Assembly: GCA_964431885.1 (NCBI GenBank)
Contig: CAYSLK010000012.1
Span: 1 to 53,439, forward strand
Direction of reading: 5' to 3'
Source of the DNA: an uncultured Dehalococcoidia bacterium
GTDB lineage: Bacteria; Chloroflexota; Dehalococcoidia; Lucifugimonadales; CAUZEB01
Length of the DNA: 53,439 nt
Within the stretch, counting starts at the first letter, position 1; each line of letters opens with the position of its first letter. Shown here in pieces: positions 1-51,679 of this stretch. The position numbers and the translations under genes are program-made. The notes below the pieces were generated by a model. The model did no database searches. It was not told where the DNA came from and saw only the letters and a program-made list of their open reading frames with translations.

Positions 1-2279
1 CTCCGAAGAAACACTAAGTTTCCTTTATGTTCAGAAACAGCCACATTGTAATTGACTATCCTCGGTAATACCTCAGCCAGTTCGGTTAGTTCATGATAAT
101 GTGTGGCAAATAACGTCTTGCAACCTAACCTAGGGTGATTATGAATGTATTCAGCAACTGATCTGGCTATAGCAAGGCCGTCATATGTACTTGTACCTCT
201 GCCTATTTCATCGAGAACAATCAGAGAGTTTTCCGTGGCATGATTTAAAATACCAGCTGTCTCTATCATTTCCACCATGAAAGTTGATTGTCCTGTCGTA
301 AGATCGTCCTGTAGACCAACACGAGTGAAAATCCTGTCTACTATACCTATAGACGCTGATTCAGCTGGTACAAAACTACCGATTTGAGACAGGAGAACTA
401 TCAATGCGACTTGGCGTATATACGTAGACTTCCCCGCCATATTGGGCCCAGTCAAGATAACAATCTGTTCATTCCGATTAGAAAGTCGAGTGTCATTTGG
501 AACAAAAGAACTCCCATCCAGAACTCGCTCCACTACAGGGTGCCGCCCTTGGTTAATTATCAGATTTTCATCATCATTTACTTCAGGACGAACATATTCA
601 TATCTAGAAGCAGCAAATGCCAACGAACATGAACCGTCAATATGAGCTATAGCCTGTGCTGTATCCATAACGGCAGTGGACATATCTCCTAACTGCTGGC
701 AAATCTGCCGAAACAGCCTATGCTCTACATCTGATATTCGACCCTGTGCATCTAAGATTTGCGATTCGTACTCCTTCATTTCTGGAGTTATATATCTCTC
801 ACCACCGACAAGCGTTTGCCGGCGTATATACTCCTCAGGGACATTGTGAAGATTCGATTTACTAATCTCAATATAGTATCCAAAAACTTTGTTATAACCA
901 ACTTTCAAATTCTTTATTTCAGTTCTCTGGCGTTCCTTCTTTTCCAAACTCGCTATATAATCTTGTGCTTTTCGTGAAGAATTTCTTATGGAATCGAGTT
1001 CCGGTGAAAAGTTTGGCTTAATAACTGTACCTTCTCCAACTATAGCAGATGGGTCATCATTAATTGAGTTCCTAACTAGAAGGACAATTTCTTTATTATC
1101 TCGAATATTTTTATAGAGCCAAGACACGTTTTTATAATCTTCACCATCTTTTAGGACAGACTTCAATTGAGGAGCCATCTCAAGACTACTTGCCAACGAT
1201 AACAAATCTCTCGGATTGGCAGTATGTCCACGGACCTTATTAATCAATCTTTCCAAATCAGCTACATTTTCTAGTATGGAAAATGTCCTGTCACGGCGGA
1301 GTGAACTATTATAAAACCATTGAACAGCATCCAATCTTTTATTGATATCTTTAACATTCAATAACGGTTGACCCAGCCAACGTCTAAGCAATCGACCGCC
1401 CATTGAAGTTTTCGTATTATCAAGCATCGAGAGAAGAGATGATTTTGATGTGCCCCACCGTCCGGCTTCGAAAAGTTCCAGATTATTTATAGTCTGCTGA
1501 TCCAGCTGCATATAATACTCCATAGAGTCCGTATGCAGGTTAGTCAACTGAGTAACTGAACGCTTCTGTGTTCTAGATAGATAATCTATAATACCGCCAG
1601 CAGCACTGATCGCTAAAGGTAACCTCTCACATCCATATGATTCTAGTGATGAAACTCCGAAATGACGTAAAAGTGTTTCGGTTGTCCATTCTAAATTAAA
1701 TGTTTCCGGTTCTATCATGGTAATGTTACCAATGTTATATTGGAGTAGGTTTTGGCATTCCTCCGTCACTAATAATTCAGAGGGCGCTAAACGACTTAAT
1801 TCGATACCCACCCGGGGCAAAGGTAACTGACAGGTTGTAAACTGACTAGTGGTGATGTCAACGTAAGCCAAGCCAGCAAAATCGTCTCTAATGACAACTG
1901 CTGCAAGATAATTGTTAGTTTTTTTATCCAACAACGACTCTTCTACAATAGTGCCAGGAGTGACCACTCGCACGACTTCTCTATCCACAATACCCTTTGA
2001 TGTTGCTGGATCACTTGTTTGTTCACATATTGCGACCTTATGACCATTTCTTATCAAGCGAGCTAAATATCCTTCTAACGAGTGATAGGGGATTCCTGCC
2101 AATGGTACTCTATGTCCAGCACCAAACTCTCGAGATGTGAGTGCTATTTCAAGTTCTCTCGAAATTAACTTCGCATCGTCATCGAAGGTCTCGTAAAAGT
2201 CCCCCATACGAAACAGGAGAATATCGCCCTGATATTCTTTTTTTATTCGCAAATATTGTCTTCTAGCTGGAGTTGTCAT
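1..2279 (-). CDS. mutS: DNA mismatch repair protein MutS, N-terminal ~759 codons (C-terminus lies beyond the left edge)
   Basis: My translation of the minus strand from the ATG at 2279 gives MTTPARRQYLRIKKEYQGDILLFRMGDFYETFDDDA. Walker A GPNMAGKST, STFMVEM and DEIGRGTSTYDG are encoded at about 130-450. The frame at the left edge still reads ...HYHELTELAEVLPRIVNYNVAVSEHKGNLVFLR. No stop-bounded minus ORF is listed here, consistent with one open frame running off the window. Confidence 0.9.
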   Translation of the reverse strand, partial: MTTPARRQYLRIKKEYQGDILLFRMGDFYETFDDDAKLISRELEIALTSREFGAGHRVPLAGIPYHSLEGYLARLIRNGHKVAICEQTSDPATSKGIVDREVVRVVTPGTIVEESLLDKKTNNYLAAVVIRDDFAGLAYVDITTSQFTTCQLPLPRVGIELSRLAPSELLVTEECQNLLQYNIGNITMIEPETFNLEWTTETLLRHFGVSSLESYGCERLPLAISAAGGIIDYLSRTQKRSVTQLTNLHTDSMEYYMQLDQQTINNLELFEAGRWGTSKSSLLSMLDNTKTSMGGRLLRRWLGQPLLNVKDINKRLDAVQWFYNSSLRRDRTFSILENVADLERLINKVRGHTANPRDLLSLASSLEMAPQLKSVLKDGEDYKNVSWLYKNIRDNKEIVLLVRNSINDDPSAIVGEGTVIKPNFSPELDSIRNSSRKAQDYIASLEKKERQRTEIKNLKVGYNKVFGYYIEISKSNLHNVPEEYIRRQTLVGGERYITPEMKEYESQILDAQGRISDVEHRLFRQICQQLGDMSTAVMDTAQAIAHIDGSCSLAFAASRYEYVRPEVNDDENLIINQGRHPVVERVLDGSSFVPNDTRLSNRNEQIVILTGPNMAGKSTYIRQVALIVLLSQIGSFVPAESASIGIVDRIFTRVGLQDDLTTGQSTFMVEMIETAGILNHATENSLIVLDEIGRGTSTYDGLAIARSVAEYIHNHPRLGCKTLFATHYHELTELAEVLPRIVNYNVAVSEHKGNLVFLR

Positions 2280-2323
2280 TCTATCATTTTCTTTGTATTC
2301 TGTGATGAATTCTCTCAGGCTTC

Positions 2324-4411
2324 TTATGGATCGGGAGTCTCTGGCACATAAACAAAATGGGCTGACTTTCTCCATAGATCTATCTTCATCAACTTTAAAT
2401 TCACTATATCGCCAGGAGTGAAGATGATAGGTAGCATAGCTCTTATCCTAAAAGGGTAATTCTCCAACTCCAGAATTGCGGAGCGTCCGGTCTGATGTTC
2501 CAGTACAACTGCTTTAATCAACTCGGATTCTACGTTGGATGGACAAAGAAATGACTTATTCAGATATTTAAGAAACCAATATCTTTTCCTCTCTTCTTCA
2601 ATTCGGGATAAGTCTTTAAGCTGTATTTTAGCTCTATCCATAACCTGAATCATATCTTCCGTTGAGTAAAGAGTTTTCCCTTTCTCTAAAAAGTAACTGA
2701 TTTGTCGTTGCATTACCAGATCAGGATAACGCCTGAGCGGTGAAGTTAGTTGGACATAAGTGGATACCCCTAATCCCATATGAGGGTGCGGGGCGCTATT
2801 CAGCTCAGCAGGCGGCAACCGACGCATCATAAGATACCGTAATAACGGATCTGTTGATACCTTCTTAAGGTCACTGCCATTTACCTCAGAACGATTCGTT
2901 TCATTTAAGCTCTGAGTCCTATAGATTGCCGGAAGACCATTATTATTGCAAAACTCAGCGAGCGTAGAATTATACAGAATCATAAATTCTGCAACCATAT
3001 CTCTAGCTTTAGAGGAACCTACTGACACATCTACATTAACATCGCCTTCTTTTGTTACTTTTATAGTCATTTCAGGTCTATTGAAAGTTAGTCCTCCCTC
3101 AGATTCCCTCTTCTGATGTAATCTTTGAGATAGTCTAAACAGTGCATTAATTATAAAATGCTTAGGGTCTGCACTGTCTGAAATGGCATTTTCTGCATCT
3201 TTATACGAGAGAGAAGACTGGCACATGATAACTGAAGGCATCAATTCCCAATCTAGAATTTCACCATTTTCATCACATTCTAGTATGAGACTAAGGGTAG
3301 CTCTTTTGACGCCTGGAAGAAGACTACCCATATCGTTACCGATTTCTAGCGGTAACATTGGGATGTTTCTTTCCGGTAAATATAAAGTGGCCATCCGAAT
3401 TTGAGCTTCATGATCAATAGCACTATTAGGAGGTACGATCGCTCCTGCATCAGCAATATGTATTCCAAGACGGTACGCAACTGGTGTTTTACCATCTTTT
3501 GAGCTTAGTTCTACGGACAGCGACAGCCCGTCATCCTTATCAATCGAACCTTCATCATCGATTGTGGTTACAGGATATGATGTCAAATCTACTCTTCGGG
3601 GATCCTCTAAAATACTGGTTAAATTTAACGATTGTACTTCAGTAGAGACAATCTCAGGAAAGGTCGTCGAAATTTCAGACCTAGCCAATTCTAACGGTTC
3701 ATCATCTGTCAGCAATTTAGCCTTTACCAAAATTTCGAAACTGAACTTCTGTGGGTCTCGTGTCTCACTATTTACAAGGCCGACTAGTTTACGAACAAAG
3801 TTATTCCTTGCAAAATTCTCACCATCGATAACATAACGTTTAATGTACAGCACTAACTTCTCTTGGTACGGCGTAACATTAGGAGGTAAATTACCGGTCA
3901 CTAAGTAGTTCATAAGCTCAATCTCCATACGTGCGTTTTCGCTCGCGATACTACGTCGTTTCCAAATATTCTCTACATCCTCTTTTGAACGTGCTTTGTA
4001 TTTCTCTCCCTCACTGAAAAAGTACACGATATCAGGATTTTCCAATTGGAAAAGAAGAGCGACTTGTCTAACAGGAACGGGAAGCTCCATGTTCCAATAA
4101 AGTTCGTTGAGCTCCTTCAAGGTAAGTCCACGTTCTTGATCCCTTGTGATCTCCCAAATCTCAGATAAATCTATATTTTTAGATAAAGCTTCACATTCTG
4201 CGGTGAACTTTTCAACTGTGTCAGAATCTCGAGCAACTACTCCAGTCGATAACAATATTCTGCTATGCGGAAGTCTAGCTTCTTTATTACGAGCAGTTAA
4301 TATACGAACTTTCTTTGATTTAGTCGATTTACACAAGCTCTGACGGTCTATGGCTCTCACAACACTAAGCCCACTGCCCAGTCGAGCCACAACGATCTCA
4401 TAAGGTTGCAC
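2324..4411 (-). CDS. rnr: RNase II/R-family 3'-5' exoribonuclease (VacB/RNase R-like), 695 aa
   Basis: The ORF-track product carries RNB-domain signatures IDDEGSIDKDDGLSL and HMGLGVSTYVQLTSPLRRYPDLVMQRQI. It has a GTG start and a TAA stop and lies 44 nt upstream of mutS on the same strand. Confidence 0.85.
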   Translation of the reverse strand: MQPYEIVVARLGSGLSVVRAIDRQSLCKSTKSKKVRILTARNKEARLPHSRILLSTGVVARDSDTVEKFTAECEALSKNIDLSEIWEITRDQERGLTLKELNELYWNMELPVPVRQVALLFQLENPDIVYFFSEGEKYKARSKEDVENIWKRRSIASENARMEIELMNYLVTGNLPPNVTPYQEKLVLYIKRYVIDGENFARNNFVRKLVGLVNSETRDPQKFSFEILVKAKLLTDDEPLELARSEISTTFPEIVSTEVQSLNLTSILEDPRRVDLTSYPVTTIDDEGSIDKDDGLSLSVELSSKDGKTPVAYRLGIHIADAGAIVPPNSAIDHEAQIRMATLYLPERNIPMLPLEIGNDMGSLLPGVKRATLSLILECDENGEILDWELMPSVIMCQSSLSYKDAENAISDSADPKHFIINALFRLSQRLHQKRESEGGLTFNRPEMTIKVTKEGDVNVDVSVGSSKARDMVAEFMILYNSTLAEFCNNNGLPAIYRTQSLNETNRSEVNGSDLKKVSTDPLLRYLMMRRLPPAELNSAPHPHMGLGVSTYVQLTSPLRRYPDLVMQRQISYFLEKGKTLYSTEDMIQVMDRAKIQLKDLSRIEEERKRYWFLKYLNKSFLCPSNVESELIKAVVLEHQTGRSAILELENYPFRIRAMLPIIFTPGDIVNLKLMKIDLWRKSAHFVYVPETPDP

Positions 4412-5437: not shown

Positions 5438-7222
5438 CTAATGTTTGGGAGCAGGGGTTATCTCAGTGTCCAAACTAAGTTGTCCCCGTTCTTTTCTCAT
5501 TAACTCTCTAGTCTTAGCTGTCCTGGCTAAATCTATTACCATAGTCTCAGATTCGACAATCACTCCATAATCCTCTTTTGCCTTACCAAAAGATATCTTT
5601 TCTTGTAAAAGGTCATTTAACACCGCTTCAGGGTCGCGATCAAGCGGGTCTCCATAGCCTCCGGCTCCTGCCTGTATCAGTCTGTAAACATCGTTTTTCT
5701 TCATGTCAAGTAAGAATTTAGAAGGCAGTAATCGATTCTCAGTATCAGGGTTGAGAAAACTATAAGTGCGTGTTCCTGGTTTTCCTCCTTGAGCGCCCCA
5801 TGGCAGAAATTTAGTTCTGTCAGATCGAATCTGTAGGGTCGCTTCTTCTTGTAACAGCTTATATTCACGTATCATACCTAATCCACCACGATGCTTTCCT
5901 GCTCCAGCGGAATCCTGAACATATCCATATTTAGTTATTAGTAAAGGCTGATCGGATTCTATAGTTTCAATATGGGTATTGTCAATATTGGTTATAGGAG
6001 CCGCAGCAACATATTCTCAGTCATCGAATGGAGTGCCTACGCGAGGTCCATCATTATTGAATTCAACAAATACGAAGGGTTTTCCGCCTGGAAAGTATCC
6101 ACCTATGCTAACACCTACTTCGCCACCTCCCCAGGCACCGGGTACTTGATCGGGAAGTGCTCTACTCATAGCTCCAAACACAGCCGAACCTATTCTGAAA
6201 CCCCCAACCCCTCGAGCTGCCACAGGCGCGGGATGTTGAGGATCGACATAACTCCCCGGCTCGGTTATAACTTTTATAGGACGGAAAAACCCAGTATTGC
6301 CCGGTATATTAGGATTAGTAAGACATTTAATTGCTGCATAAGTCGCAGATTTGGTAAAAGCCAAATTTGGATTTATGGAACCTTTCGCCTGAGGAGATGT
6401 GCCAGTGAAATCCACCTCCATTTCATCACCAGTAATTGTTACTTTAACTTTGATAGCTATGGATTCAGGGTTAATACCATCATCATCAATGTAGTCCGTA
6501 AATTCCCAAGAACCATTCGGTAACGATTCAATTTCTGCCCTTGTTAATCTTTCTGTATGGTCGATGATGTCCGTCATATAACCTTTTAGCGGTTCAGGTC
6601 CATACCCCTCAACCAGTCTAAGATAATCCTGTTCACCTTGTCGTAAGGCTGAAACTTGGGCAAGAATATCGCCCAGAACCTTATCAGGCACACGGACATT
6701 CTTAGTAATAATACGCCAGACCGCGCTATTGATTTCGCCTCTATCAAATAATTTAATCGGGGGAATCCTCAATCCTTCTTGATATATTTCAGTATTATCA
6801 CAGGCATTTCCGCCAGCGACCCGACCTCCAATATCTGTATGATGAGCTATCACACAAACCCAACCCATCAGCAATTCGTTATAGAAGACGGGCTTAAAAA
6901 GGAAGATGTCTGGCAAATGACTCGCACCCTCATACGGATCATTATTTGCAAATATATCCTCAGGATTAATATCGTCGCCGAATTGCGCGATTACTGCGTC
7001 TAAGGCCGGTTGCATAGCACCCATATGGAAAGGTAATGTCAGCCCTTGAGCAACCTGTTCTCCATCGGCATTAAAGATGGCAGTTGAAAAATCCATCCCA
7101 TCCTTAACGACTAGAGACCGTGCAGTTCTAACAACCGTAACAGCCATAGTATCAGCGGCACTGGCAAGAGAATTCTTTATTATCTCTCTGGTAACTGGAT
7201 CTAATGTCTGAGACTTACTCAC
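5438..7222 (-). CDS. Hydantoinase B/oxoprolinase-family protein, 594 codons, interrupted only by an in-frame TGA at 6017-6019 (possible Sec, readthrough or nonsense lesion)
   Basis: Track ORFs 6017..7222 and 5438..5875 are in the same frame (1785 nt, divisible by 3). I translated 5876-6016 as EYVAAAPITNIDNTHIETIESDQPLLITKYGYVQDSAGAGKHRGGLG. It is open, joins onto MIREYKLL... and contains the family DSxGAGxxRGGLG motif. The GTG start at 7222 is preceded by GAGG, and the stop is TAG. Confidence 0.8.
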
Positions 7223-7278: not shown

Positions 7279-8652
7279 CTAATTATGTTTTTTTAAAGTT
7301 ATGTTTTTCATTTCATCCAAAGATGTTTGCCATCCAGGAGGTACAACAGTTGTAGAATCATACTCCTCAATAATTAGTGGCCCCGGATTGACGCCATTTG
7401 CTAAATCTAATCTATCAATTACAGGAGTGTCGATCCAGCTATTCGCAGAGACGAAAAATACTTTCCTGGTTTGATTCTTGTGTTCGCGAGGCACGGAGGT
7501 GAATTCTATCCTATCAGGTACTCGCGGAGAGTCCGATATTCCTCTAGCCACTACTCTAATGTTGACTAATTGGTATGGATCCTGAGCACTATATCCATAG
7601 GTTTTCTCATGCTCACGATCGAATTCCACACCCAATGCTTCGACGGAATTAAGATTAAAATAATCATGCTCCATATTTACGGTGAGCTCGGAGGTTTGAC
7701 CAATGTATTTCATGTCAATTTGAGTGATTATCTGATGGTTATCTACGGAGAAGCCTTCTGCAGATAAGAGTCCCTTTCCTTGATTTCTAAGATCATTTAA
7801 TATTGAATTTGCCTCATCCAAATCCAATTCCGAAAATGCCTTAAAATAAGTCCGAACGAAATGATGCTCCACGTCTGCAAACAGGAGTCCAAAAGCACTA
7901 AACACCCCTGGTGAAGGAGGGATTATTATTTGAGTTATGTCAAGCATATCGGCGAGACCGGTTGCATGGATAGGACCTCCTCCTCCAAAGGCCGTTAGAT
8001 CGAATAGACGAGGGTCTCGTCCACGTTCGCTGGACACAGCCCGCAAAGCTCGAGCCATATTTGAATTAACAAGGAGATGGATACCACGAGCAGCTTCAGT
8101 ATCATTCAAACCAAGTGGGCCGCCTATCTTATCAGCAACAGACTGACGGGCTTTCTCTCCATTCAACGGGAATCCTCCGCCTAATAAATGTTGTGGATTA
8201 AGGTATCCCAGCATTACATTTGCATCAGTTACCGTAGGGTCTTCACCGCCATTGTCATAGCAGACCGGACCGGGAACCGCGCCTGCACTATGGGGACCCA
8301 CTTGTAAGGATCCTCCTCTATCCACCCAGGCTATACTTCCTCCACCAGAACTTACTTCAGCTATGTCTATAGCTGGCACTCGAAGTATATATCCGGAACC
8401 TTTGAGAAGCCTATGGCCGGAACTCATCCCTCCGCCAACTTCATAATCAGGAGCTCTAAGCATATCTCCATCCTCTATAATAGAGGCCTTAGCAGTTGTA
8501 CCTCCCATGTCGAACGTCATTAAATTAGGTTTCTCTAACCTTTTCCCTAACTGAAAAGCGCCTACCACACCTGCTGCAGGTCCAGATTCAATGCAATACA
8601 TAGGCTTATCGACTACAACTTCCACTGGAGCTAGTCCACCATTGGATTGCAT
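7279..8652 (-). pseudogene. Hydantoinase A/oxoprolinase-family gene, C-terminal (hydantoinase_A domain) part of a frameshifted reading frame
   Basis: The 457-aa product starts MQSNGGLAPVEVVVDKP, the family's conserved IMQSNGG entry into the ATPase domain. It overlaps the N-terminal fragment in a different frame (9394 and 8652 differ modulo 3). Confidence 0.8.
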
Positions 8653-9367
8653 TATCGTAAGTGGAACCTTGACTCCCTTTTTGCATTTTTATGCTCAGTT
8701 CCGTCAAATATTCCGCTACAACCGGTCTAACATAGGCGTTAATCACGGTAGTACTGGTTCGTTCATATTCCTTCATTTCAGGAAGAAGTTCACTCGAAAT
8801 GGATAAAACCAATTCAGGCATTATCGAATTTAGTCTAGCCACTATTTTTTGCTCGTGATCTGGATTCGCATAAGAATGCATAAGAGATATCGCCACCGAT
8901 CGTATATTTTGCTCCTTTAGAATAGCTGCTATCTTATCAACATCTTCCATTACGATAGGTTGCAGTACTTCACCTTTAAATGTGACCCTTTCTCTAACCT
9001 CGAAGCGAAGTCTTCGTTCCACCAGAGGTGGAGGCTTTTGATAGTACAAATCGTATAGAGTCGGGGTACGTAGCCTAGAAATCTCTAGTACATCTCTAAA
9101 ACCCTCAGTAGTAATTAATGCGGTTCTCTCACCCTTGCCTTCTAAGATAGCGTTAGTCGCCACAGTGAAACCGTGACTCAATTCAGAAATGTTCTCGGGG
9201 CCAATACCGAGCTCTTTAATGCCTTGGGCAAGACCCTCTAAGACCGCACGTCCATAATCGTCTGGAGTACTGGCAACCTTTTTCACTAATACGGTGCCAT
9301 CGTGCCCCAGGAAAACGACATCTGTAAACGTTCCTCCGATATCTGCTCCAGCTCTATATAAATCCAT
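8606..9367 (-). pseudogene. Hydantoinase A/oxoprolinase-family gene, N-terminal (Hydant_A_N) part of the same frameshifted reading frame
   Basis: It encodes MDLYRAGADIGGTFTDVV... (ATG at 9367 preceded by AAGGA; the track ORF extends to 9394). The frame is lost after ...ELSIKMQK at the A5 run (T5 on the plus strand, 8678-8682). Deleting one A restores MQKGVKVPLTIMQSNGGL. Confidence 0.8.
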
Positions 9368-9547
9368 CTTTATATCCTTTTGATAGAAGACCACGCTATG
9401 TTAATTTTAGTACGGGGCAAGCCCGCCAGTGAAGCTCCTAACCGAATTTTTATTAATTAGTTATGAATCTTATCACATGGTTGCTATTTCAATATATTAT
9501 CTCTTACCAAACGTTACATTGACTGCTCTAATCTATTAAATACTTCT

Positions 9548-14702: not shown

Positions 14703-15752
14703 TTATCCCTCACTGTCAAGAAACTTGGCTGGGTTATCTACCAGCATAACTTTTATCTGTTCTTCATTTAACCCAACCGCCTTAAATATGGGTACGACAC
14801 TATCCAACAAATGATCGTATCCAAACCCGCCGTATCTTCTAAGCTGATTTTTCGTACATAGATCCATAGCTAAAACAACCTGATCTAAATAGCCTGCTTC
14901 AATCACCTTAGCAAGGTTTTCAGCTCTTTCATAATCGGTCGGATATACACGACCAGGCCGCTGACGATCTGAGTATTGATAAATATCTGTCTGGCCAAAG
15001 GTGTCAAATCCCAAATATGCACCAGTACTAGCAACTTCCTCAAAATAAGAAAGGTCACACCGAGCATCAAGATCAACGTGACAAAGCACGGTATGCTTTA
15101 AATCAGCCCCTTCTTCTCTTGCAATATCCAAAACTCTAGGTCCGTGCCGACCCCATATGCTATGGTGAATAGAGAGTGGTATTCCCGTACTCGCTTGGGC
15201 TCTGGCCGAACCTCGAAGCACTTTTTCTTCACCCAGAGTGAACGGATCTCCTGTTCCTATCTCTCCAATGATTCCCATACGTATTTCGCTATCATCTACG
15301 CCTACAGTGATCTCCTTAATCAGTCTGTCTGCTATATCGTCGATAGTGCGCTCTTTAAGATACTCTGGGTGGCGTTCTTGCACATAATAACCACCGCCCA
15401 TAATTATGTTTAATCCTGTAGCGGCGGCAATTTCTCGTAAGGCTTTAGGATCCCGTCCTAAACCTGGAGGCGTCTGATCTACAACCGTATCGCCACCCGA
15501 CAACTTAAAACGTTTAATCTCATCAAGAGCTTCTTTTAGATCCAAGCGGTGAGAATTATCCAAGTGGCCATAACCTACCTTTCGCGCCCATCCTATAGTA
15601 TCCATGCGAAGGGGGCTTTCTGCCATCTGACGTATATCTGGGTCATCTGATGGTTTGTAGTGCCATGACCCATCAAAATATATGTGTTCATGAATAGTGG
15701 TGACTCCCAATTCCTTTGCGCTCATTGGCCCCATAACTGTCATAACACTCAT
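14703..15752 (-). CDS. Phosphotriesterase-family (PTER/PHP-like amidohydrolase-fold) protein, 349 aa
   Basis: N-terminal MGPMSAKELGVTTIHEHIYFD contains the HxH metal motif, and the rest of the 349-aa product resembles phosphotriesterase-homology proteins by eye. It is a paralog of 21858..22838. Confidence 0.8.
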   Translation of the reverse strand: MSVMTVMGPMSAKELGVTTIHEHIYFDGSWHYKPSDDPDIRQMAESPLRMDTIGWARKVGYGHLDNSHRLDLKEALDEIKRFKLSGGDTVVDQTPPGLGRDPKALREIAAATGLNIIMGGGYYVQERHPEYLKERTIDDIADRLIKEITVGVDDSEIRMGIIGEIGTGDPFTLGEEKVLRGSARAQASTGIPLSIHHSIWGRHGPRVLDIAREEGADLKHTVLCHVDLDARCDLSYFEEVASTGAYLGFDTFGQTDIYQYSDRQRPGRVYPTDYERAENLAKVIEAGYLDQVVLAMDLCTKNQLRRYGGFGYDHLLDSVVPIFKAVGLNEEQIKVMLVDNPAKFLDSEG

Positions 15753-20256: not shown

Positions 20257-20958
20257 TCACTTATTCTCTTTGAGGTTCGCCAAAGCTTCATTGGCAGCAT
20301 TTTGCTCAGCCATTGACTTACGCTGTCCTATACCTCTTCCTAAAATATTGTCCGAAACCAGAACTTCTACTTCGAAAATGGGAGAATGACTCTTGCCTTT
20401 AAAATTTACTAATTTGTAAATAGGAACTCCGGTTCCCATTCGTAGAGAGAGTTCCTGAAGAGCAGACTTAGGATTGTTGATAGTTTGATCAACAGACGAA
20501 AGCCTTTCTGACATCACTTTTAGGACGAATTCGCTCACAGCATTGAATCCCATATCCAAAAACAAAGAACCGATAAGAGCTTCGAAGACGGCCGCCAAAT
20601 TCGATTGCCTTGATCTTCCTCCAATGTTCTCCTCGCCTTTCCCCAACAACAGATAATGACCTAATGATAAGGATTGGGCGACGTCAGCTAATGTTTCTTG
20701 CTTTACTAATTCGGAACGCCAACGGGTAAGATACCCTTCTTGTAATCCAGGATGACGTCGGTAAAGTTCTATCGCAATTACCGAACCAATCAACGCGTCA
20801 CCCAAAAATTCTAGTCTCTCATTAGATTCTAGAACTGCTTCTGGATTTTCATTCAAATAGGAACTGTGCACTAGAGAGAGTTTTAACAATTCCTTGTTTT
20901 GAAACGAAAGGCCTAGAGCTTGTTCTAGTTCGTTCAATCTATACATGAAATCCATCAT
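20257..20958 (-). CDS. rnc: Ribonuclease III, 233 aa
   Basis: The RNase III signature NERLEFLGDALIG is present, with a C-terminal dsRBD (...GRGIGQRKSMAEQNAANEAL). Confidence 0.92.
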   Translation of the reverse strand: MMDFMYRLNELEQALGLSFQNKELLKLSLVHSSYLNENPEAVLESNERLEFLGDALIGSVIAIELYRRHPGLQEGYLTRWRSELVKQETLADVAQSLSLGHYLLLGKGEENIGGRSRQSNLAAVFEALIGSLFLDMGFNAVSEFVLKVMSERLSSVDQTINNPKSALQELSLRMGTGVPIYKLVNFKGKSHSPIFEVEVLVSDNILGRGIGQRKSMAEQNAANEALANLKENK

Positions 20959-20964
20959 ACAAAT

Positions 20965-21600
20965 CTAGAGCAATGCACCTTTGGGCCAAGGAGGTTGTGG
21001 GCGCTTCAGTTCACCTATATAGGACCTGTCAGCAGATATAGCCATAAAATGTTTGAATGCCTCTATAGAATCTTTCTCAGGAGGTATGAAAGTCTTCAAA
21101 TAAGCTGCATGGCCATTTTTAAACAAGAAAGTTGGGGTACCAAACACACCATGGTTTTCAACTGCATCTTTGTGATCATCACCAATGATTTCAAGTGATT
21201 GAGGATTCATTATATCTCGTTTAAACTTAGTGATATCTAGCCCCACTTCTTCTGCTAAATCTAGCATGGGCTTTATTTCGTTCAAGGCTATTCTACCATC
21301 GCCTCCATGACGGGCCGTCAAAAGAGCTAGGTGAAATTTTTCAAAATTATCGGAACCTTGTTTTTTTGCTGCCTCACCTGACATAGCGGCTATAAGTGAA
21401 CGCCTTTGTGTTGGATCTGGTTGTTCCCAGACTTTCCAATCAGAACTATCCGCACTGTTAATTTGCTCTAGGCAGAAATTCTTCCAGGTCACATCCAGAC
21501 TGGTTCCATAAACACTTTTTACTCTATTCAGCCACACGGCTGCATTGTATACCCATGGTCAGGCATAATCGCCATAAACTGCTAAAGTTATTTTATCCAT
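20965..21600 (-). CDS. DsbA-family thioredoxin-fold protein, probable selenoprotein (Sec at codon 14, TGA 21559-21561), 211 aa
   Basis: The track ORF 20965..21537 begins at an internal GTG. The same frame continues upstream as MDKITLAVYGDYA-[TGA]-PWVYNAAV from the ATG at 21600, which is preceded by AGGAGAGAG. YGDYAUPWVY aligns with the DsbA/FrnE-type DxxCPxCY active site, and the cis-Pro loop GVFGTPTF is present. A SECIS-like hairpin lies downstream. Confidence 0.7.
21526..21545 (-). promoter_or_regulatory. SECIS-like hairpin in the DsbA-family mRNA
   Basis: The mRNA reads AU-G-CAGCC-GUGU-GGCUG-A-AU: a 5-bp GC-rich stem plus two outer A-U pairs across one mismatch. The 4-nt loop starts with G, and its first nucleotide is 22 nt after the UGA (21 nt intervene). 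Confidence 0.5.
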
Positions 21601-21627
21601 TAGTATTCTCTCTCCTATATTTTATTT

Positions 21628-21652
21628 CATCTAGATTCTACGAATCTAGATG
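21628..21652. promoter_or_regulatory. 25-bp palindrome CATCTAGATTC-TAC-GAATCTAGATG in the leader/promoter of the DsbA-family gene
   Basis: Read directly: exact 11-bp arms with a 3-nt spacer, 28 nt upstream of the ATG at 21600. Confidence 0.4.
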
Positions 21653-21857
21653 CAGAAAGTCAAAACTTACTTGCCTAGACTTCATTATACGTTACTCCAC
21701 ATAATGCTCACTGTTGATCCTAACAGACTTCTAGTAGATGGTAAGTTCTTGACTAATTGTTCAAGCTATCTCAACAATTTGACCATGTGTCGAAGTCGTG
21801 GTACGGTCTGATCAGGAAATTTGTATTATGAATAAGAATATCTAAGGAGAGTTCGAT

Positions 21858-22838
21858 TTGCCAAATGAGATTATGACCGTTACAGGACCAATATCAGCCG
21901 ATGATCTTGGTTTTACACTGGCTCACGAGCATATATTCTTGGATTTAATGCCTGACGCGTGGGTTGGCGGCAATTACATGAATGATCTAGATGTCGCTCA
22001 ACTGGAACTACAACGGTATAAAGACGCAGGTGGTGTTACTTTAGTTGATCAAACTTCTGGGGGTCTGAGGGAAAACGATCATGACCTTCTAATAGACGAA
22101 GACCTCAATCACCTGAAACACGCGGAAGCTATTAAACTGATGGCAGAGAAGACAGGTCTGAATATCATACTGGGTTGCGGATGGTATCGCGAAACGTACT
22201 ACCCGCAAAGACTTTGGAGAATGAAAACTGATGAAATAGCAGAAGAAATGCTGCAGGACCTAACGGAGGGTATCGACGGTACTAATATACGAGCAGGTTT
22301 CATAGGCGAGATAGGTGCTCACTTTAATTGGGTATCAGCAATCGAAGAACGAGTTTTGCGAGCCGCGGCGCGTGCCCAGGTAAAAACTAATGTCGCATTG
22401 GGGACACATGCAACTAGAGGTACTCAAGGACTTGATCAGTTAGATGTACTCGAACAAGAGGGTGTTGACTTACGGAGAGTCGTAGTTGCACACTCAGGGG
22501 GCTTCCCGAGACATAAATACCATGCTGAAATCGCTCGTAGAGGCGCATACATTTCATACGATAGAATGGGCAACCTGAAAAATGCTAACCCCTACGATAA
22601 GAAAAGAACTCTTCAACACATAAAGAAGATTATCGACGCAGGCTTAATCAACAATCTGATTTTCTCTCACGACGTTTGCTACACTCACGACTGGCATACT
22701 TACGGGGGTTCCGGTTATGACTTCCTGTCTACAGAGGCTCTTCCTATGTTAAAGGAGGAAATTGGAATGACTGAAGAACAATTTAATACGATTATGTTGG
22801 GGAATTCACGACGCCTTTTAACTGGAGAAGGATTATAA
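21858..22838 (+). CDS. Phosphotriesterase-family (PTER/PHP-like) protein, 326 aa
   Basis: VTGPISADDLGFTLAHEHIFLD contains the HxH motif, and the rest of the product resembles PTER-family proteins by eye. The TTG start is preceded by AAGGAG. It is a paralog of 14703..15752. Confidence 0.8.
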   Translation: MPNEIMTVTGPISADDLGFTLAHEHIFLDLMPDAWVGGNYMNDLDVAQLELQRYKDAGGVTLVDQTSGGLRENDHDLLIDEDLNHLKHAEAIKLMAEKTGLNIILGCGWYRETYYPQRLWRMKTDEIAEEMLQDLTEGIDGTNIRAGFIGEIGAHFNWVSAIEERVLRAAARAQVKTNVALGTHATRGTQGLDQLDVLEQEGVDLRRVVVAHSGGFPRHKYHAEIARRGAYISYDRMGNLKNANPYDKKRTLQHIKKIIDAGLINNLIFSHDVCYTHDWHTYGGSGYDFLSTEALPMLKEEIGMTEEQFNTIMLGNSRRLLTGEGL

Positions 22839-33616: not shown

Positions 33617-33886
33617 CTGGTCGTGCTAGGTGGGGAGATAGCGGTGCCCTATACTCGCAATCCGCTCTAGCGAGACTTAACTCCTCCCGGAGGTTTTTTT
33701 TCAGATCCTCTTTCCATGAAGGCCTGTGTTGAAAATCAGATCCTACGCGGCGGTAACCTGTGAATCCCGTCAGGTCCGGAAGGAAGCAGCGGTAAACAGT
33801 TATTCCGGGTGCCGTAGGCCAAACTGGTTTGAGCAGCTTTCACGAGATATGTCTCTGAAAAGAATCGAACGGAGGTGCACGACCTG
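33617..33886 (+). ncRNA. ffs: Signal recognition particle RNA, long (Bacillus-type, Alu-domain-containing) form, ~270 nt
   Basis: The domain IV core GUCAGGUCCGGAAGGAAGCAGCGGUAA lies at about 33770-33795. The 5' Alu-domain sequence GGUCGUGCUAGGUGGGGAGAUAGCGGUGCCCUAUACUCGCAAUCCGCUCUAGCGAG closely parallels my recollection of B. subtilis scRNA. The 5' GGUCGUGC pairs with the 3' GCACGACC (33877-33884). The ends are approximate. Confidence 0.85.
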
Positions 33887-42360: not shown

Positions 42361-42437
42361 CGGGGAGTGGCGCAGTTTGGAAGCGCACCTGCATGGGGTG
42401 CAGGGGGTCGCTGGTTCAAATCCAGTCTCCCCGACCA
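42361..42437 (+). tRNA. tRNA-Pro, anticodon GGG, with encoded CCA
   Basis: I folded it by hand. Acceptor stem CGGGGAG/CTCCCCG, D stem GCGC/GCGC, anticodon stem CCTGC/GCAGG with loop AT-GGG-GT (G37), T arm GCTGG-TTCAAAT-CCAGT, discriminator A, then CCA. Total 77 nt. Confidence 0.93.
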
Positions 42438-51037: not shown

Positions 51038-51679
51038 TTATACCTTTTCATTTTCATCAGATACAGCTTCTGAAAGTTTCTGATCTTCTTTCTCGATCCC
51101 TGCAGAGTCTTCTGAATCGTGTTCTAATGCAACAGCATCCACTGACTCTGGCGTTTCATCAACTTCCTCAGTGGTTGCTGTCTCAGTTGCAACTGCATCC
51201 ACTGATTCTGGCGTTTCATCAACTTCCTCAGTGGTTGCTGTCTCAGCTGCAACTGGCCTACGACGAGGTGACCAGCTTTGAGCAGGCATACGATGATCCT
51301 GACTCAATGGCAACATCGCCAACATCCTAGCGCGCTTAATTGCAGATGCCAAACGCCTCTGGTGTTTAGCACAAACACCAGTCCTTCTTCTACCCTCCAT
51401 TTTAAATCTTTCTGAAAGAAATCTTCTAAGGCGATCCACATCTTTGTAATCTATATGCTTAACTTTATCAACGCAAAAATTACAAATTTTCCTACGAGCA
51501 TAGTATCTGGGACGGCCTCCTGGGCGTCGCCCACCGGAGGATCCTGGTCTTCCACCTTGAAACCCTGGTCTTCCACCTTGAAACCCTGGCCTTCCGCCTT
51601 GAAACCCTGGCCTTCCGCCTGGACCCGATCTTTCACCGCCTCCCTGTCTTCCACTACTAGATGTTGTTGTCATTGTCAT
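51038..51679 (-). CDS. rpsR: 30S ribosomal protein S18 with long N- and C-terminal extensions, 213 aa
   Basis: The S18 core [63 protein letters not shown] is flanked by a Gly/Arg/Pro-rich N-terminal region (GGRPGFQ repeats) and an acidic C-terminal region with a 20-aa duplication. It is the last gene of rpsF-ssb-rpsR. Confidence 0.9.
51129..51256. repeat. Tandem 60-nt direct repeat (two copies plus 8 nt) inside the rpsR 3' region
   Basis: Read directly: 51129-51188 and 51189-51248 differ at 3 of 60 positions, followed by a partial third copy GCAACTGG. It encodes [19 protein letters not shown](T/L) twice. Confidence 0.9.
51543..51623. repeat. Tandem 21-nt direct repeat (about 3.8 copies) inside the rpsR 5' region
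   Basis: Read directly: CCTGGTCTTCCACCTTGAAAC twice, CCTGGCCTTCCGCCTTGAAAC once, then a truncated copy. It encodes the GGRPGFQ repeats. Confidence 0.9.

Follow-up and report, generated by a model that had tools for sequence, protein, structure and literature searches.

DsbA-like selenoproteins of marine bacteria have been catalogued before. A UxxC form ('form 1' or 'DsbA 1') belongs to the Sargasso Sea and GOS selenoproteomes (PMC1088965, PMC2398784), and a table of the latter (Zhang & Gladyshev 2008) also lists 'DsbA 3, pfam01323, UxxV', known from just five sequences in three samples. The original prediction for the locus studied here had mentioned DsbA-like selenoproteins from marine metagenomes as already reported, which is correct (UxxC in PMC1088965, UxxV in PMC2398784). 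A 2026 catalogue (PMC13188914, citing Peng et al. 2016) names a 'DsbA-like protein form 2' with PF01323 and the motif DxxUP. DR_2335 of Deinococcus radiodurans is a cytoplasmic DsbA-like protein with 'no experimental data' on its function (PMC8945050). Among the most selenoprotein-rich genomes are MAGs of Dehalococcoidia, for which 49 and 46 selenoprotein genes are listed (PMC13326102). Peng et al. 2016 scored one single-cell genome of SAR202, an incomplete one, as negative for all Se traits, and our literature search returned no paper pairing SAR202 with selenoproteins.

We analysed a contiguous stretch of 53,439 nt of Dehalococcoidia DNA (the window). Judging from comparative sequence data, positions 20965-21600 of its minus strand very probably form a single gene that encodes a cytoplasmic DsbA-like selenoprotein of 211 residues, in which selenocysteine (Sec) would be inserted at an in-frame UGA by means of a hairpin (Table 1). 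The minus-strand translation reads MDKITLAVYGDYA*PWVYNAAVWLNRVK..., where the asterisk stands for the in-frame TGA, the sole interruption of the 211-codon frame. The positions originally given for the ATG (21600), the TGA (21559-21561), the internal GTG (21537) and the 6-nt gap to rnc all hold in the sequence, as does the Shine-Dalgarno sequence 5' of the ATG. No comparable purine-rich Shine-Dalgarno stretch can be read 5' of the internal GTG. Promoter-like consensus matches in the region are no more numerous than in shuffles.

Table 1 Features of the predicted selenoprotein gene and its surroundings (window coordinates).
Feature	Position	Strand	Remarks
Predicted full-length selenoprotein CDS	20965..21600	(-)	211 codons including Sec14; DsbA-like, DR_2335-type thioredoxin fold
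Start codon ATG (true start)	21598..21600	(-)	From sequence; relatives start 12-13 codons 5' of the TGA, nearly always with ATG
Shine-Dalgarno AGGAG	21612..21616	(-)	From sequence; 11 nt 5' of the ATG
Predicted Sec codon UGA, residue 14	21559..21561	(-)	Probable active-site nucleophile; motif D-Y-A-U-P-W-V
Putative SECIS element within the coding sequence	21526..21546	(-)	Codons N19-N25
Internal GTG (Val22), false start for ORF and gene callers	21535..21537	(-)	G-U-G forms bases 1-3 of the putative SECIS loop
G-V-F-G-T-P-T-F	21127..21150	(-)	Columns invariant in alignments
C-terminal family signature G-E-L-K-R-P-Q-P-P-W-P-K-G	20977..21015	(-)	Columns invariant in alignments
Stop codon TAG	20965-20967	(-)	From sequence
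Promoter-like site TTGACT, 17-nt spacer, TAGAAT	21635..21663	(-)	10/12 consensus matches; ~35 nt 5' of the ATG
rnc (RNase III)	20257..20958	(-)	ATG at 20958; 6-nt spacer after the stop of the selenoprotein gene

To read the UGA we turned to related loci, inspecting 80 out of 456 tblastn-confirmed relatives in GTDB species genomes. The same column is TGA in 80/80 of these Dehalococcoidia/SAR202 genomes, so that every inspected locus carries the Sec form; counted by sequence, it is TGA in 85/85, which come from 81 different species or contigs. Around the UGA the amino acids are kept (D-[YF]-x-U-P-[WYF]-V), with synonymous variation in their codons (D, GAC 64/GAT 17; Y, TAC 40/TAT 29; A, GCT 41/GCC 27), and purifying selection is seen on both flanks. 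The UGA had been predicted to occupy the position of the nucleophilic Cys. Five orthologues (P0003, P0004, P0020, P0033 and P0039) indeed have TGC or TGT in this column, reading D-Y-A-C-P-[WY]-V-Y-N, and Cys24 of DR_2335 aligns there as well. Cys is the only replacement of the UGA among orthologues, a signature that points to Sec as its meaning; further, more distant Cys forms exist. Three Cys forms are nested among Sec forms and retain the hairpin: L087, with 95.7% nucleotide identity to the Sec-form L022, L085, 90% identical to L031, and L086, 78% identical to L038. As had been expected, TGA is a genuine stop elsewhere in the window, ending 6/34 Pfam-supported ORFs including rnc, and the code is thus not globally reassigned. 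Conservation of the UGA column, together with the synonymous freeze downstream of it, is far beyond chance.

The anticipated hairpin CAGCC-GUGU-GGCUG was confirmed. Loop base 1 lies 22 nt past the A of the UGA, with 21 nt in between. CAGCC (21542-21538) pairs with GGCUG (21533-21529) in a 5-bp stem around the loop GUGU (21537-21534), and two outer A-U/U-A pairs (21545/21526 and 21544/21527) lie across a G/A mismatch. The hairpin core has an MFE of -8.1 kcal/mol in the window and a median of -9.8; a 66-nt fold of the window sequence alone did not differ significantly from shuffles (z = -0.09). The block has the consensus AAU GCA GCC GUG UGG CUG GAU (in the window its last codon is AAU). When the 91 conserved degenerate codons are ranked by synonymous entropy, the five lowest values all fall in this block, a clustering with a chance of ~1e-7 by our own arithmetic. 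Effective codon numbers are 1.07-1.56 for the hairpin codons compared with 1.5-4.9 for degenerate flanking codons. Distant Cys orthologues encode T-A-V-W-L as ACC GCG GUC UGG CUC, and the hairpin is absent.

Pair counts along the stem (RNAalifold) were CG 69; AU 58/GU 11; GC 67/GU 2; CG 69; and CG 65. Pairing is kept through the changes that do occur (A-U to G-U 11 times, G-C to G-U twice), an outer pair is compensatory (AU 62/GC 3), and one clade (L054/L060/L070) has a longer stem by way of paired N-to-S and D-to-H changes. Since the element hardly varies, strict covariation on both sides is rare (4 cells). The synonymous freeze and the pairing-preserving substitutions indicate selection on the RNA beyond the protein sequence. 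Published bacterial SECIS criteria are a loop of 3-9 nt with G in its first two positions, followed by U, a stem of 4-16 bp, a spacing of 16-37 nt and an MFE <= -7.5 kcal/mol (PMC13188914); with its GUGU loop, 5-bp stem, 21-nt spacing and MFE of -8.1, the hairpin falls within them. In 14 loci without rnc both the TGA and the hairpin are retained, which ties the hairpin to the TGA rather than to rnc. These comparative data support the view that the hairpin behaves as a SECIS. A lower stem pairing the UGA itself (UGACCCU...AGGGUCA) is present in some species and was rejected as part of the element, as it is not conserved.

The read-through protein matches Pfam DSBA (PF01323) with an E-value of 3.4e-10 and 40.4 bits (gathering cut-off 25.6), residues 5-164 covering profile positions 1-175; the match thus starts at profile position 1. 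An AF2 model of a Cys orthologue (pLDDT 92.5, low across the final ~10-12 residues) has strand 1 at residues 4-10 and a helix at 15-31, with the UGA-column residue between strand 1 and the N-terminus of helix 1. Foldseek matched the model to DsbA-fold structures, a thioredoxin fold with a helical insertion. The invariant G-V-F-G-T-P-T-F (T155-P156) is presumably the conserved cis-Pro loop of this fold. Position +3 from Sec/Cys is Val throughout the family, which implies a single-Sec active site in which Val takes the place of the resolving Cys, as predicted. The motif holds no second Cys, and no other Cys is conserved, at the C-terminus or elsewhere. The protein is not a classical DsbA, having U-P-W-V in place of CxxC and no signal peptide; strand 1 begins at residue 4, leaving no leader. 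The predicted DsbA/FrnE-type start holds for the DSBA fold and fails for the FrnE type, as CP[WF]C and a conserved C-terminal Cys are both missing. A single nucleophile in D-x-x-C-P-[YWF]-[VA] and full-length similarity to DR_2335 place the family in the single-nucleophile group of the DR_2335 type (D-x-x-C/U-P-[YWF]-[VA]) and outside the CPWC type of FrnE.

The adjacency to rnc noted in the window is conserved: rnc lies directly 3' of the selenoprotein gene in 60/80 loci and adjoins Cys forms too. No terminator-like site was found on the minus strand between the two genes, and judging by this arrangement they are probably co-transcribed. The other neighbours vary (PTE, CoA-transferase, luciferase-like monooxygenases, glutamine synthetase, ClpB) and are uninformative on function. 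In marine SAR202/Dehalococcoidia the gene belongs to the core and is linked to rnc, and gene callers systematically truncate it, as had been stated of standard gene calling. GenBank relatives are truncated 'DsbA family protein' entries of 189-194 aa without the catalytic residue, and most database homologues have 188-195 aa and begin MWL... or MHNAAVWL. The best NCBIfam match reaches 19.9 bits against a cut-off of 190, leaving no model to rescue such entries, and a cluster look-up for the catalogue entry MDP6049977.1 and for GOS DsbA 3 gave only 'DsbA family protein' names. Tara and other marine metagenomes contain identical copies of the window protein.

Searches of the 53-kb window and of ~0.6 Mb of related loci, set against a whole genome of roughly 3 Mb, found no selA, selB, selD or tRNA-Sec. 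ARAGORN and Rfam on the window and ARAGORN on 60 loci gave no tRNA-Sec, Pfam on 38 window ORFs gave no Sec machinery, and tblastn searches of 0.62 Mb of DNA with E. coli SelA, SelB and SelD as queries gave no match. BSepDB, which lists the Dehalococcoidia MAGs named above, counts a species as Sec-utilising only with >=2 Sec-pathway genes (PMC13326102).

The real product would be the 190-aa protein of the annotation, with GTG 21537 as its start, if the 20 codons upstream belonged to a short unrelated ORF or to a leader that is not translated. Both mechanical ORF calling and public annotation give this product, and the length of most database entries agrees with it, but we consider it very improbable. 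Across 81 species the 13 codons 5' of the TGA vary synonymously and keep their protein sequence, which speaks against the possibility, raised with the original prediction, that homologues consistently start at this GTG without the active-site strand. Without these codons the DSBA profile and fold would lack strand 1 and the active-site motif, and continuous Cys orthologues exist. The GTG itself has no Shine-Dalgarno sequence and encodes Val within the frozen loop of the hairpin, while the database starts are inconsistent with one another (MWL.. and MHNAAVWL..), as expected of an artefact. A nonsense mutation in a pseudogene, or a sequencing error, deserves mention because the window holds a true example: an in-frame TGA (6017-6019) splits hyuB, read-through of which restores a continuous Hydantoinase_B match (552 bits). 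That column is a conserved Gly (GGN) in nine metagenome homologues, none with TGA, a nearby NTP motif has decayed, and hyuA is frameshifted at an A-run, for which reasons we rejected hyuB as a second selenoprotein in favour of a pseudogene lesion; a six-frame scan of the window revealed no other credible TGA-split gene. The contrast is sharp, as the TGA of the DsbA-like gene is identical across 85/85 independent assemblies with purifying selection on either side, and conservation over 81 species effectively refutes a lesion or error, which we regard as next to impossible.

The UGA might instead be read as Trp, Gly or Cys without selenium, by near-cognate suppression or a reassigned code, with the hairpin acting as a pausing site or as an RNase III site that regulates rnc. 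E. coli RNase III autoregulates through a leader hairpin, the hairpin here lies in an mRNA that probably carries rnc as well, and no Sec machinery was found in the window or in ~0.6 Mb of related loci. RNase III substrates, however, are far longer than a stem of 5-8 bp, and the 14 loci that keep the hairpin have no rnc downstream. Reassignment is at odds with the TGA stops of 6/34 window genes, rnc included, and decoding as another amino acid with the exclusive replacement of UGA by Cys in orthologues. The spacing and the G-U loop start are those of a bacterial SECIS, and Dehalococcoidia MAGs are documented Sec users (PMC13326102). Overall, decoding without selenium appears improbable, and we favour the reading as a selenoprotein.

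In the corresponding mechanism, translation would initiate at ATG 21600, and the hairpin 21 nt 3' of the UGA (21561-21559; codons A-A-V-W-L) would recruit SelB with Sec-tRNA(Sec), so that, as the comparative evidence suggests, Sec would be inserted in place of termination. The product is predicted to adopt a thioredoxin fold with the DsbA helical insertion, with Sec between strand 1 and the N-terminus of helix 1. Its selenolate may attack an oxidised sulfur substrate, such as a disulfide (also one mixed with a low-molecular-weight thiol), a sulfenate or a peroxide. An external thiol would then be required to resolve the selenenyl-sulfide, as it is in monothiol glutaredoxins, Cys-type GSTs and Rv2466c-like enzymes. 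In other lineages, fusions of Cys-form relatives to dephospho-CoA kinase (CoaE) recur, which raises the idea that the family might use coenzyme A as thiol partner; coaE was not found near the SAR202 genes in the loci examined. The reading as a whole, which we consider rather unlikely, is that the selenium form of a DR_2335-type enzyme, as a near-universal core gene of SAR202, an abundant deep-ocean clade, has CoA as its partner and, for instance, reduces CoA-mixed disulfides or strips CoA from proteins. If true, this CoA-linked function would be a new selenium-dependent activity.

The selenoprotein gene does not overturn current understanding. It corrects annotations in which gene callers systematically cut off the Sec-bearing front end, adds to the picture of selenium reliance in marine SAR202/Dehalococcoidia, and links to redox catalysis a family whose only solved member is DR_2335. 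The putative SECIS is very clean and minimal (5-bp stem, GUGU loop) and comes with natural Sec/Cys allele pairs. These alleles alternate between genomes up to 95.7% identical over the gene, which would offer a natural experiment on the benefit of Sec.

Among known structures, DR_2335 (PDB 7DK9; C24S mutant 7DKA) is the best PDB sequence match (E 1.7e-16, residues 5-203) and the best fold match (TM 0.78, 29-30% identity). It shares the single conserved Cys24 in F-D-F-L-C-P-Y-A, aligned with the Sec column, the absence of a signal peptide and a related C-terminus (R-R-P-x-P; DR_2335 ends I-R-R-P-V-P), and differs in having Cys instead of Sec and in belonging to another phylum. FrnE (DR_0659), Rv2466c, kappa-class GST/HCCA isomerase and DsbM are likewise cytoplasmic and of the same fold class (Foldseek probability 1.0, TM 0.58-0.69), but only 14-22% identical to the window protein. 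FrnE matches over a partial stretch (E about 7e-6, TM 0.59) and has CxxC plus a C-terminal CxxxxC; Rv2466c has CxxC, and in kappa GST and HCCA isomerase the active-site position is Ser. Several members of this group depend on a low-molecular-weight thiol (mycothiol, glutathione), the type of external reductant that a single-Sec site needs.

As to the RNA, the hairpin resembles bacterial SECIS elements (bSECISearch model; E. coli fdhF prototype) in its place in the coding region 3' of the UGA, its 4-nt apical loop opening with G-U, its 5-bp upper stem, the 21-nt spacing and an MFE <= -7.5. It differs in its very small size, in having no conserved lower stem back to the UGA and in the 1x1 G/G or G/A mismatch between the stem and the two outer pairs. 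The fdhF SECIS has a bulged U, which the window hairpin does not.

Among catalogued selenoproteins, form 1/'DsbA 1' is also a marine bacterial DSBA-domain selenoprotein with an N-terminal active-site Sec and a bacterial SECIS in the coding region, but it retains the resolving Cys; Val at this position in the window protein makes dithiol/diselenide-type exchange within one motif impossible. The DxxUP of 'DsbA-like protein form 2' fits D-Y-A-U-P in the window and the D-x-x-C-P found across the whole family, Cys forms too, whereas the window protein is without the domain quoted for form 2. GOS 'DsbA 3' agrees in pfam01323, in the single-Sec motif U-x-x-V (U-P-W-V in the window) and in its marine metagenome origin, and this agreement suggests that the window protein may be its orthologue; lineage, SECIS conservation, rnc linkage and a structural relative, not given in PMC2398784, are described here. 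This kind of marine DsbA-like selenoprotein is already catalogued, and the window gene is an ordinary further case of it.

Reading of the minus strand bore out all coordinates that the original prediction had given for the gene (see the table below). Translation through the TGA yields a product with the N-terminus MDKITLAVYGDYA-U-PWVYNAAVWLNRVK. With Cys in place of U, the 211-aa product matched the Pfam DSBA profile (PF01323; E 3.4e-10), and since its residue 5 aligned to profile position 1, the restored N-terminus is part of the DSBA domain. A search for homologues yielded 639 proteins. Among the 120 best, almost every one is 188-195 aa long and has a common start (MWLDRVK.. or MHNAAVWL..), and a few are 210-217 aa long and read ..Y-[AG]-D-[YFP]-A-C-P-[WY]-V-Y-N-[AT]-A... 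The GenBank relatives are truncated entries, full-length (Cys) and truncated (Sec) proteins fall together in one cluster at 90% identity, and the family lacks an NCBIfam model. When 1.84 billion representatives were searched exhaustively, 872 relatives scored E <= 0.001, and the Cys forms among them have the motif D-x-x-C-P-[YFW]-[VA] throughout. The confident AlphaFold2 model of a 63% identical Cys orthologue (P0004; pLDDT 92.5) places the Cys between strand 1 (residues 4-10) and the N-terminus of a helix (15-31), the canonical active-site position of a thioredoxin fold. The protein lacks a leader peptide and is thus cytoplasmic.

Coordinates of the selenoprotein gene and of other features in the window
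Feature	Position	Strand	Remark
Shine-Dalgarno AGGAG	21616-21612	-	11 nt upstream of ATG
Start ATG	21600-21598	-	read from sequence
In-frame TGA, single	21561-21559	-	read from sequence
Hairpin stem CAGCC/GGCUG	21542-21538/21533-21529	-	read from sequence
Hairpin loop GUGU	21537-21534	-	first loop base 22 nt past A of UGA
Internal GTG	21537-21535	-	start chosen by mechanical ORF calling
Stop TAG	20967-20965	-	read from sequence
rnc ATG	20958	-	6-nt spacer after selenoprotein gene
Open frame, MutS-like by eye	1-2375	-	>790 codons, off left end
RNB-domain exoribonuclease	2324-4411		
hyuB (Hydantoinase_B)	5438-7222	-	in-frame TGA 6017-6019
hyuA	7279-9394	-	frame change near 8606-8652
PF02126 paralogue	14703-15752	-	
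PF02126 paralogue	21858-22838	+	
Large SRP RNA, bacterial	33621-33882	+	178.6 bits
tRNA-Pro(GGG)	42361-42437	+	
S18-domain ORF	51038-51679	-	213 aa, domain at residues 72-123 only

A GTDB scan with one genome per species confirmed 456 relatives, of which the best 80 loci, all from Dehalococcoidia/SAR202/Chloroflexota MAGs, were compared. TGA occupies the Cys column in 85/85 sequences, namely these 80 loci, the window, and four metagenome contigs whose encoded ORF product is identical to the window's 190-aa one. The 12-13 codons from the start codon (nearly always ATG) to the TGA are conserved as protein across loci, while synonymous sites vary freely (D = GAC 64/GAT 17, Y = TAC 40/TAT 29, A = GCT 41/GCC 27), a pattern of purifying selection acting on a frame that is translated across the TGA. 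Reassignment of the codon is not the explanation, because TGA terminates 6 of the window's 34 Pfam-supported genes, rnc among them. Among orthologues, the UGA is replaced by Cys only, which is the classical selenocysteine signature.

Folding of the 66-nt hairpin region by itself gave no stability beyond that of shuffled sequence (z = -0.09); the lone sequence thus proves nothing, and the SECIS case depends on comparison. Codons +5 to +11 past the TGA (AAT GCA GCC GTG TGG CTG GAT) hardly vary at synonymous sites: their effective codon number is 1.07-1.56, compared to 1.5-4.9 in degenerate flanking codons. Across the 91 conserved degenerate codons of the whole gene, V22, L24, A21, D25, and N19 have the five lowest synonymous entropies, and A20 ranks seventh. 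RNAalifold recovered the 5-bp stem from 69 distinct sequences, in which stem substitutions keep pairing (A-U to G-U 11 times, G-C to G-U twice). Beyond the stem lie two outer A-U pairs separated by a G/A mismatch; when outer pairs are counted, one shows an A-U to G-C compensation in the clade of loci L054/L060/L070. These three loci carry a variant SECIS (about 3040-3093): GCC to GCG opens the closing pair, leaving a 6-nt loop (GGUGUG), and N-to-S and D-to-H changes add G-C pairs for a continuous 7-bp stem (GUGCGGC/GCUGCAC). Their active-site motif is altered to U-P-F-A-H-S.

Bacterial SECIS elements are described by a loop of 3-9 nt, a stem of 4-16 bp, a spacing of 16-37 nt, and an MFE <= -7.5, with G at the first two positions of the loop and usually G or U next (PMC13188914). 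The window's hairpin falls within these ranges (GUGU loop, 5-bp stem, 21-nt spacing, MFE -8.1; median -9.8). Two codings occur in the distant Cys orthologues (Krumholzibacteria and one other contig): ACC GCG GTC TGG CTC for the same T-A-V-W-L, and ACG GCC ACG TGG CTG for a related T-A-T-W-L. Neither forms the hairpin, which makes them a decisive control. Furthermore, the 14 loci without rnc downstream retain the hairpin, so it tracks the TGA and not rnc. In these comparisons the hairpin behaves as a SECIS, and they show UGA decoding directed by this downstream element, with Sec as the predicted nucleophile of a DsbA fold. The originally predicted DsbA-family selenoprotein with an active-site UGA and SECIS is a real feature, and this reading is supported.

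Three rnc-linked Cys forms (L085, L086, and L087) have TGC at the column, keep the hairpin intact, and are nested among Sec forms. Their nearest Sec forms share 90% (L031), 78% (L038), and 95.7% (L022) nucleotide identity, respectively. Either Sec has recently and repeatedly given way to Cys, or these alleles are a standing polymorphism. No selA, selB, selD, or tRNA-Sec was found within the 53-kb window or in 0.6 Mb of related loci. In a 2016 survey, one SAR202 single-cell genome, which is incomplete, came out negative and many other Chloroflexi positive. BSepDB, where a species needed two or more Sec-pathway genes to count as a Sec user, has two Dehalococcoidia MAGs in its list of the ten most selenoprotein-rich bacteria (49 and 46 genes; PMC13326102), indirectly supporting Sec use in the lineage.

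The resolving Cys is absent: all members have Val at +3, and Cys43 of the window protein is not conserved among them. The selenolate would attack an oxidised sulfur substrate, and the selenenyl-sulfide would then be resolved by an external thiol. In SAR202, rnc is the sole conserved neighbour (60/80 loci) and also adjoins Cys forms. Immediately downstream of the Krumholzibacteria-type Cys orthologue is a glutaredoxin gene (L088/L089, 1500-2943; L090, 240-1214), and in L088/L089 an AhpC/Prx (peroxiredoxin) gene as well. These surroundings are of a thiol-redox kind, differ from the rnc linkage seen in SAR202, and give a weak hint to the mechanism. Four representative Cys forms from other lineages (P0172, P0177, P0225, and P0237) carry a fused N-terminal dephospho-CoA kinase (CoaE) domain, a second weak hint, in that coenzyme A may be a partner of the family; near the SAR202 selenoprotein genes there is no coaE.

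Elsewhere in the window, the in-frame TGA of hyuB was rejected as selenocysteine. Translated through this codon, the gene matches Pfam continuously over 519 positions. The column holds Gly (GGA/GGT/GGG) in nine metagenome homologues, within D-G-A-D-G-A-A-A-P, and a nearby N-T-P motif reads N-T-H in the window. This TGA is a nonsense lesion in a decaying gene and serves as a useful internal negative control. The adjacent hyuA consists of two overlapping ORFs, Hydant_A_N (262 aa) and Hydantoinase_A plus C (457 aa), between which the reading frame changes at an A-rich stretch (GCATAAAAATGCAAAAAGGG). A frameshift pseudogene would agree with the hyuB lesion; the alternative is a sequencing error in the homopolymer. 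The start of the MutS-like frame overlaps the end of the exoribonuclease gene, and one of the two phosphotriesterase-family paralogues is divergently transcribed from the selenoprotein gene. Many amidohydrolase, CoA-transferase, and racemase-type catabolic genes, typical of SAR202, are present. The SRP RNA and tRNA-Pro were the only RNA genes detected, and the S18-domain ORF has either an over-extended start or unusual extensions.

Among solved structures, the closest is DR_2335 from Deinococcus radiodurans (7DK9; E 1.7e-16, TM 0.78), a DsbA-like protein of the cytoplasm whose one conserved Cys lies in F-D-F-L-C-P-Y-A and which is without a reported function (PMC8945050, PMC6300522); FrnE, Rv2466c, kappa GST, HCCA isomerase, and DsbM are more distant fold relatives. 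DsbA-like selenoproteins from the Sargasso Sea have a UxxC motif (9 sequences; PMC1088965), as do DsbA 1 and DsbA 2 in the GOS table (PMC2398784). GOS 'DsbA 3' (pfam01323; 5 selenoprotein sequences, 3 samples, 72 Cys homologues; PMC2398784) has UxxV, exactly the window protein's motif, and D-Y-A-U-P fits the DxxUP of 'DsbA-like protein form 2' (PF01323) in a 2026 catalogue (PMC13188914). Compared by motif and domain descriptions, the window protein is probably identical with DsbA 3 or form 2. The gene adds another representative to an already known kind of selenoprotein, and what is new is the SAR202 lineage, the near-universality there, a minimal conserved SECIS, natural Sec/Cys allele pairs, and the structural tie to DR_2335.
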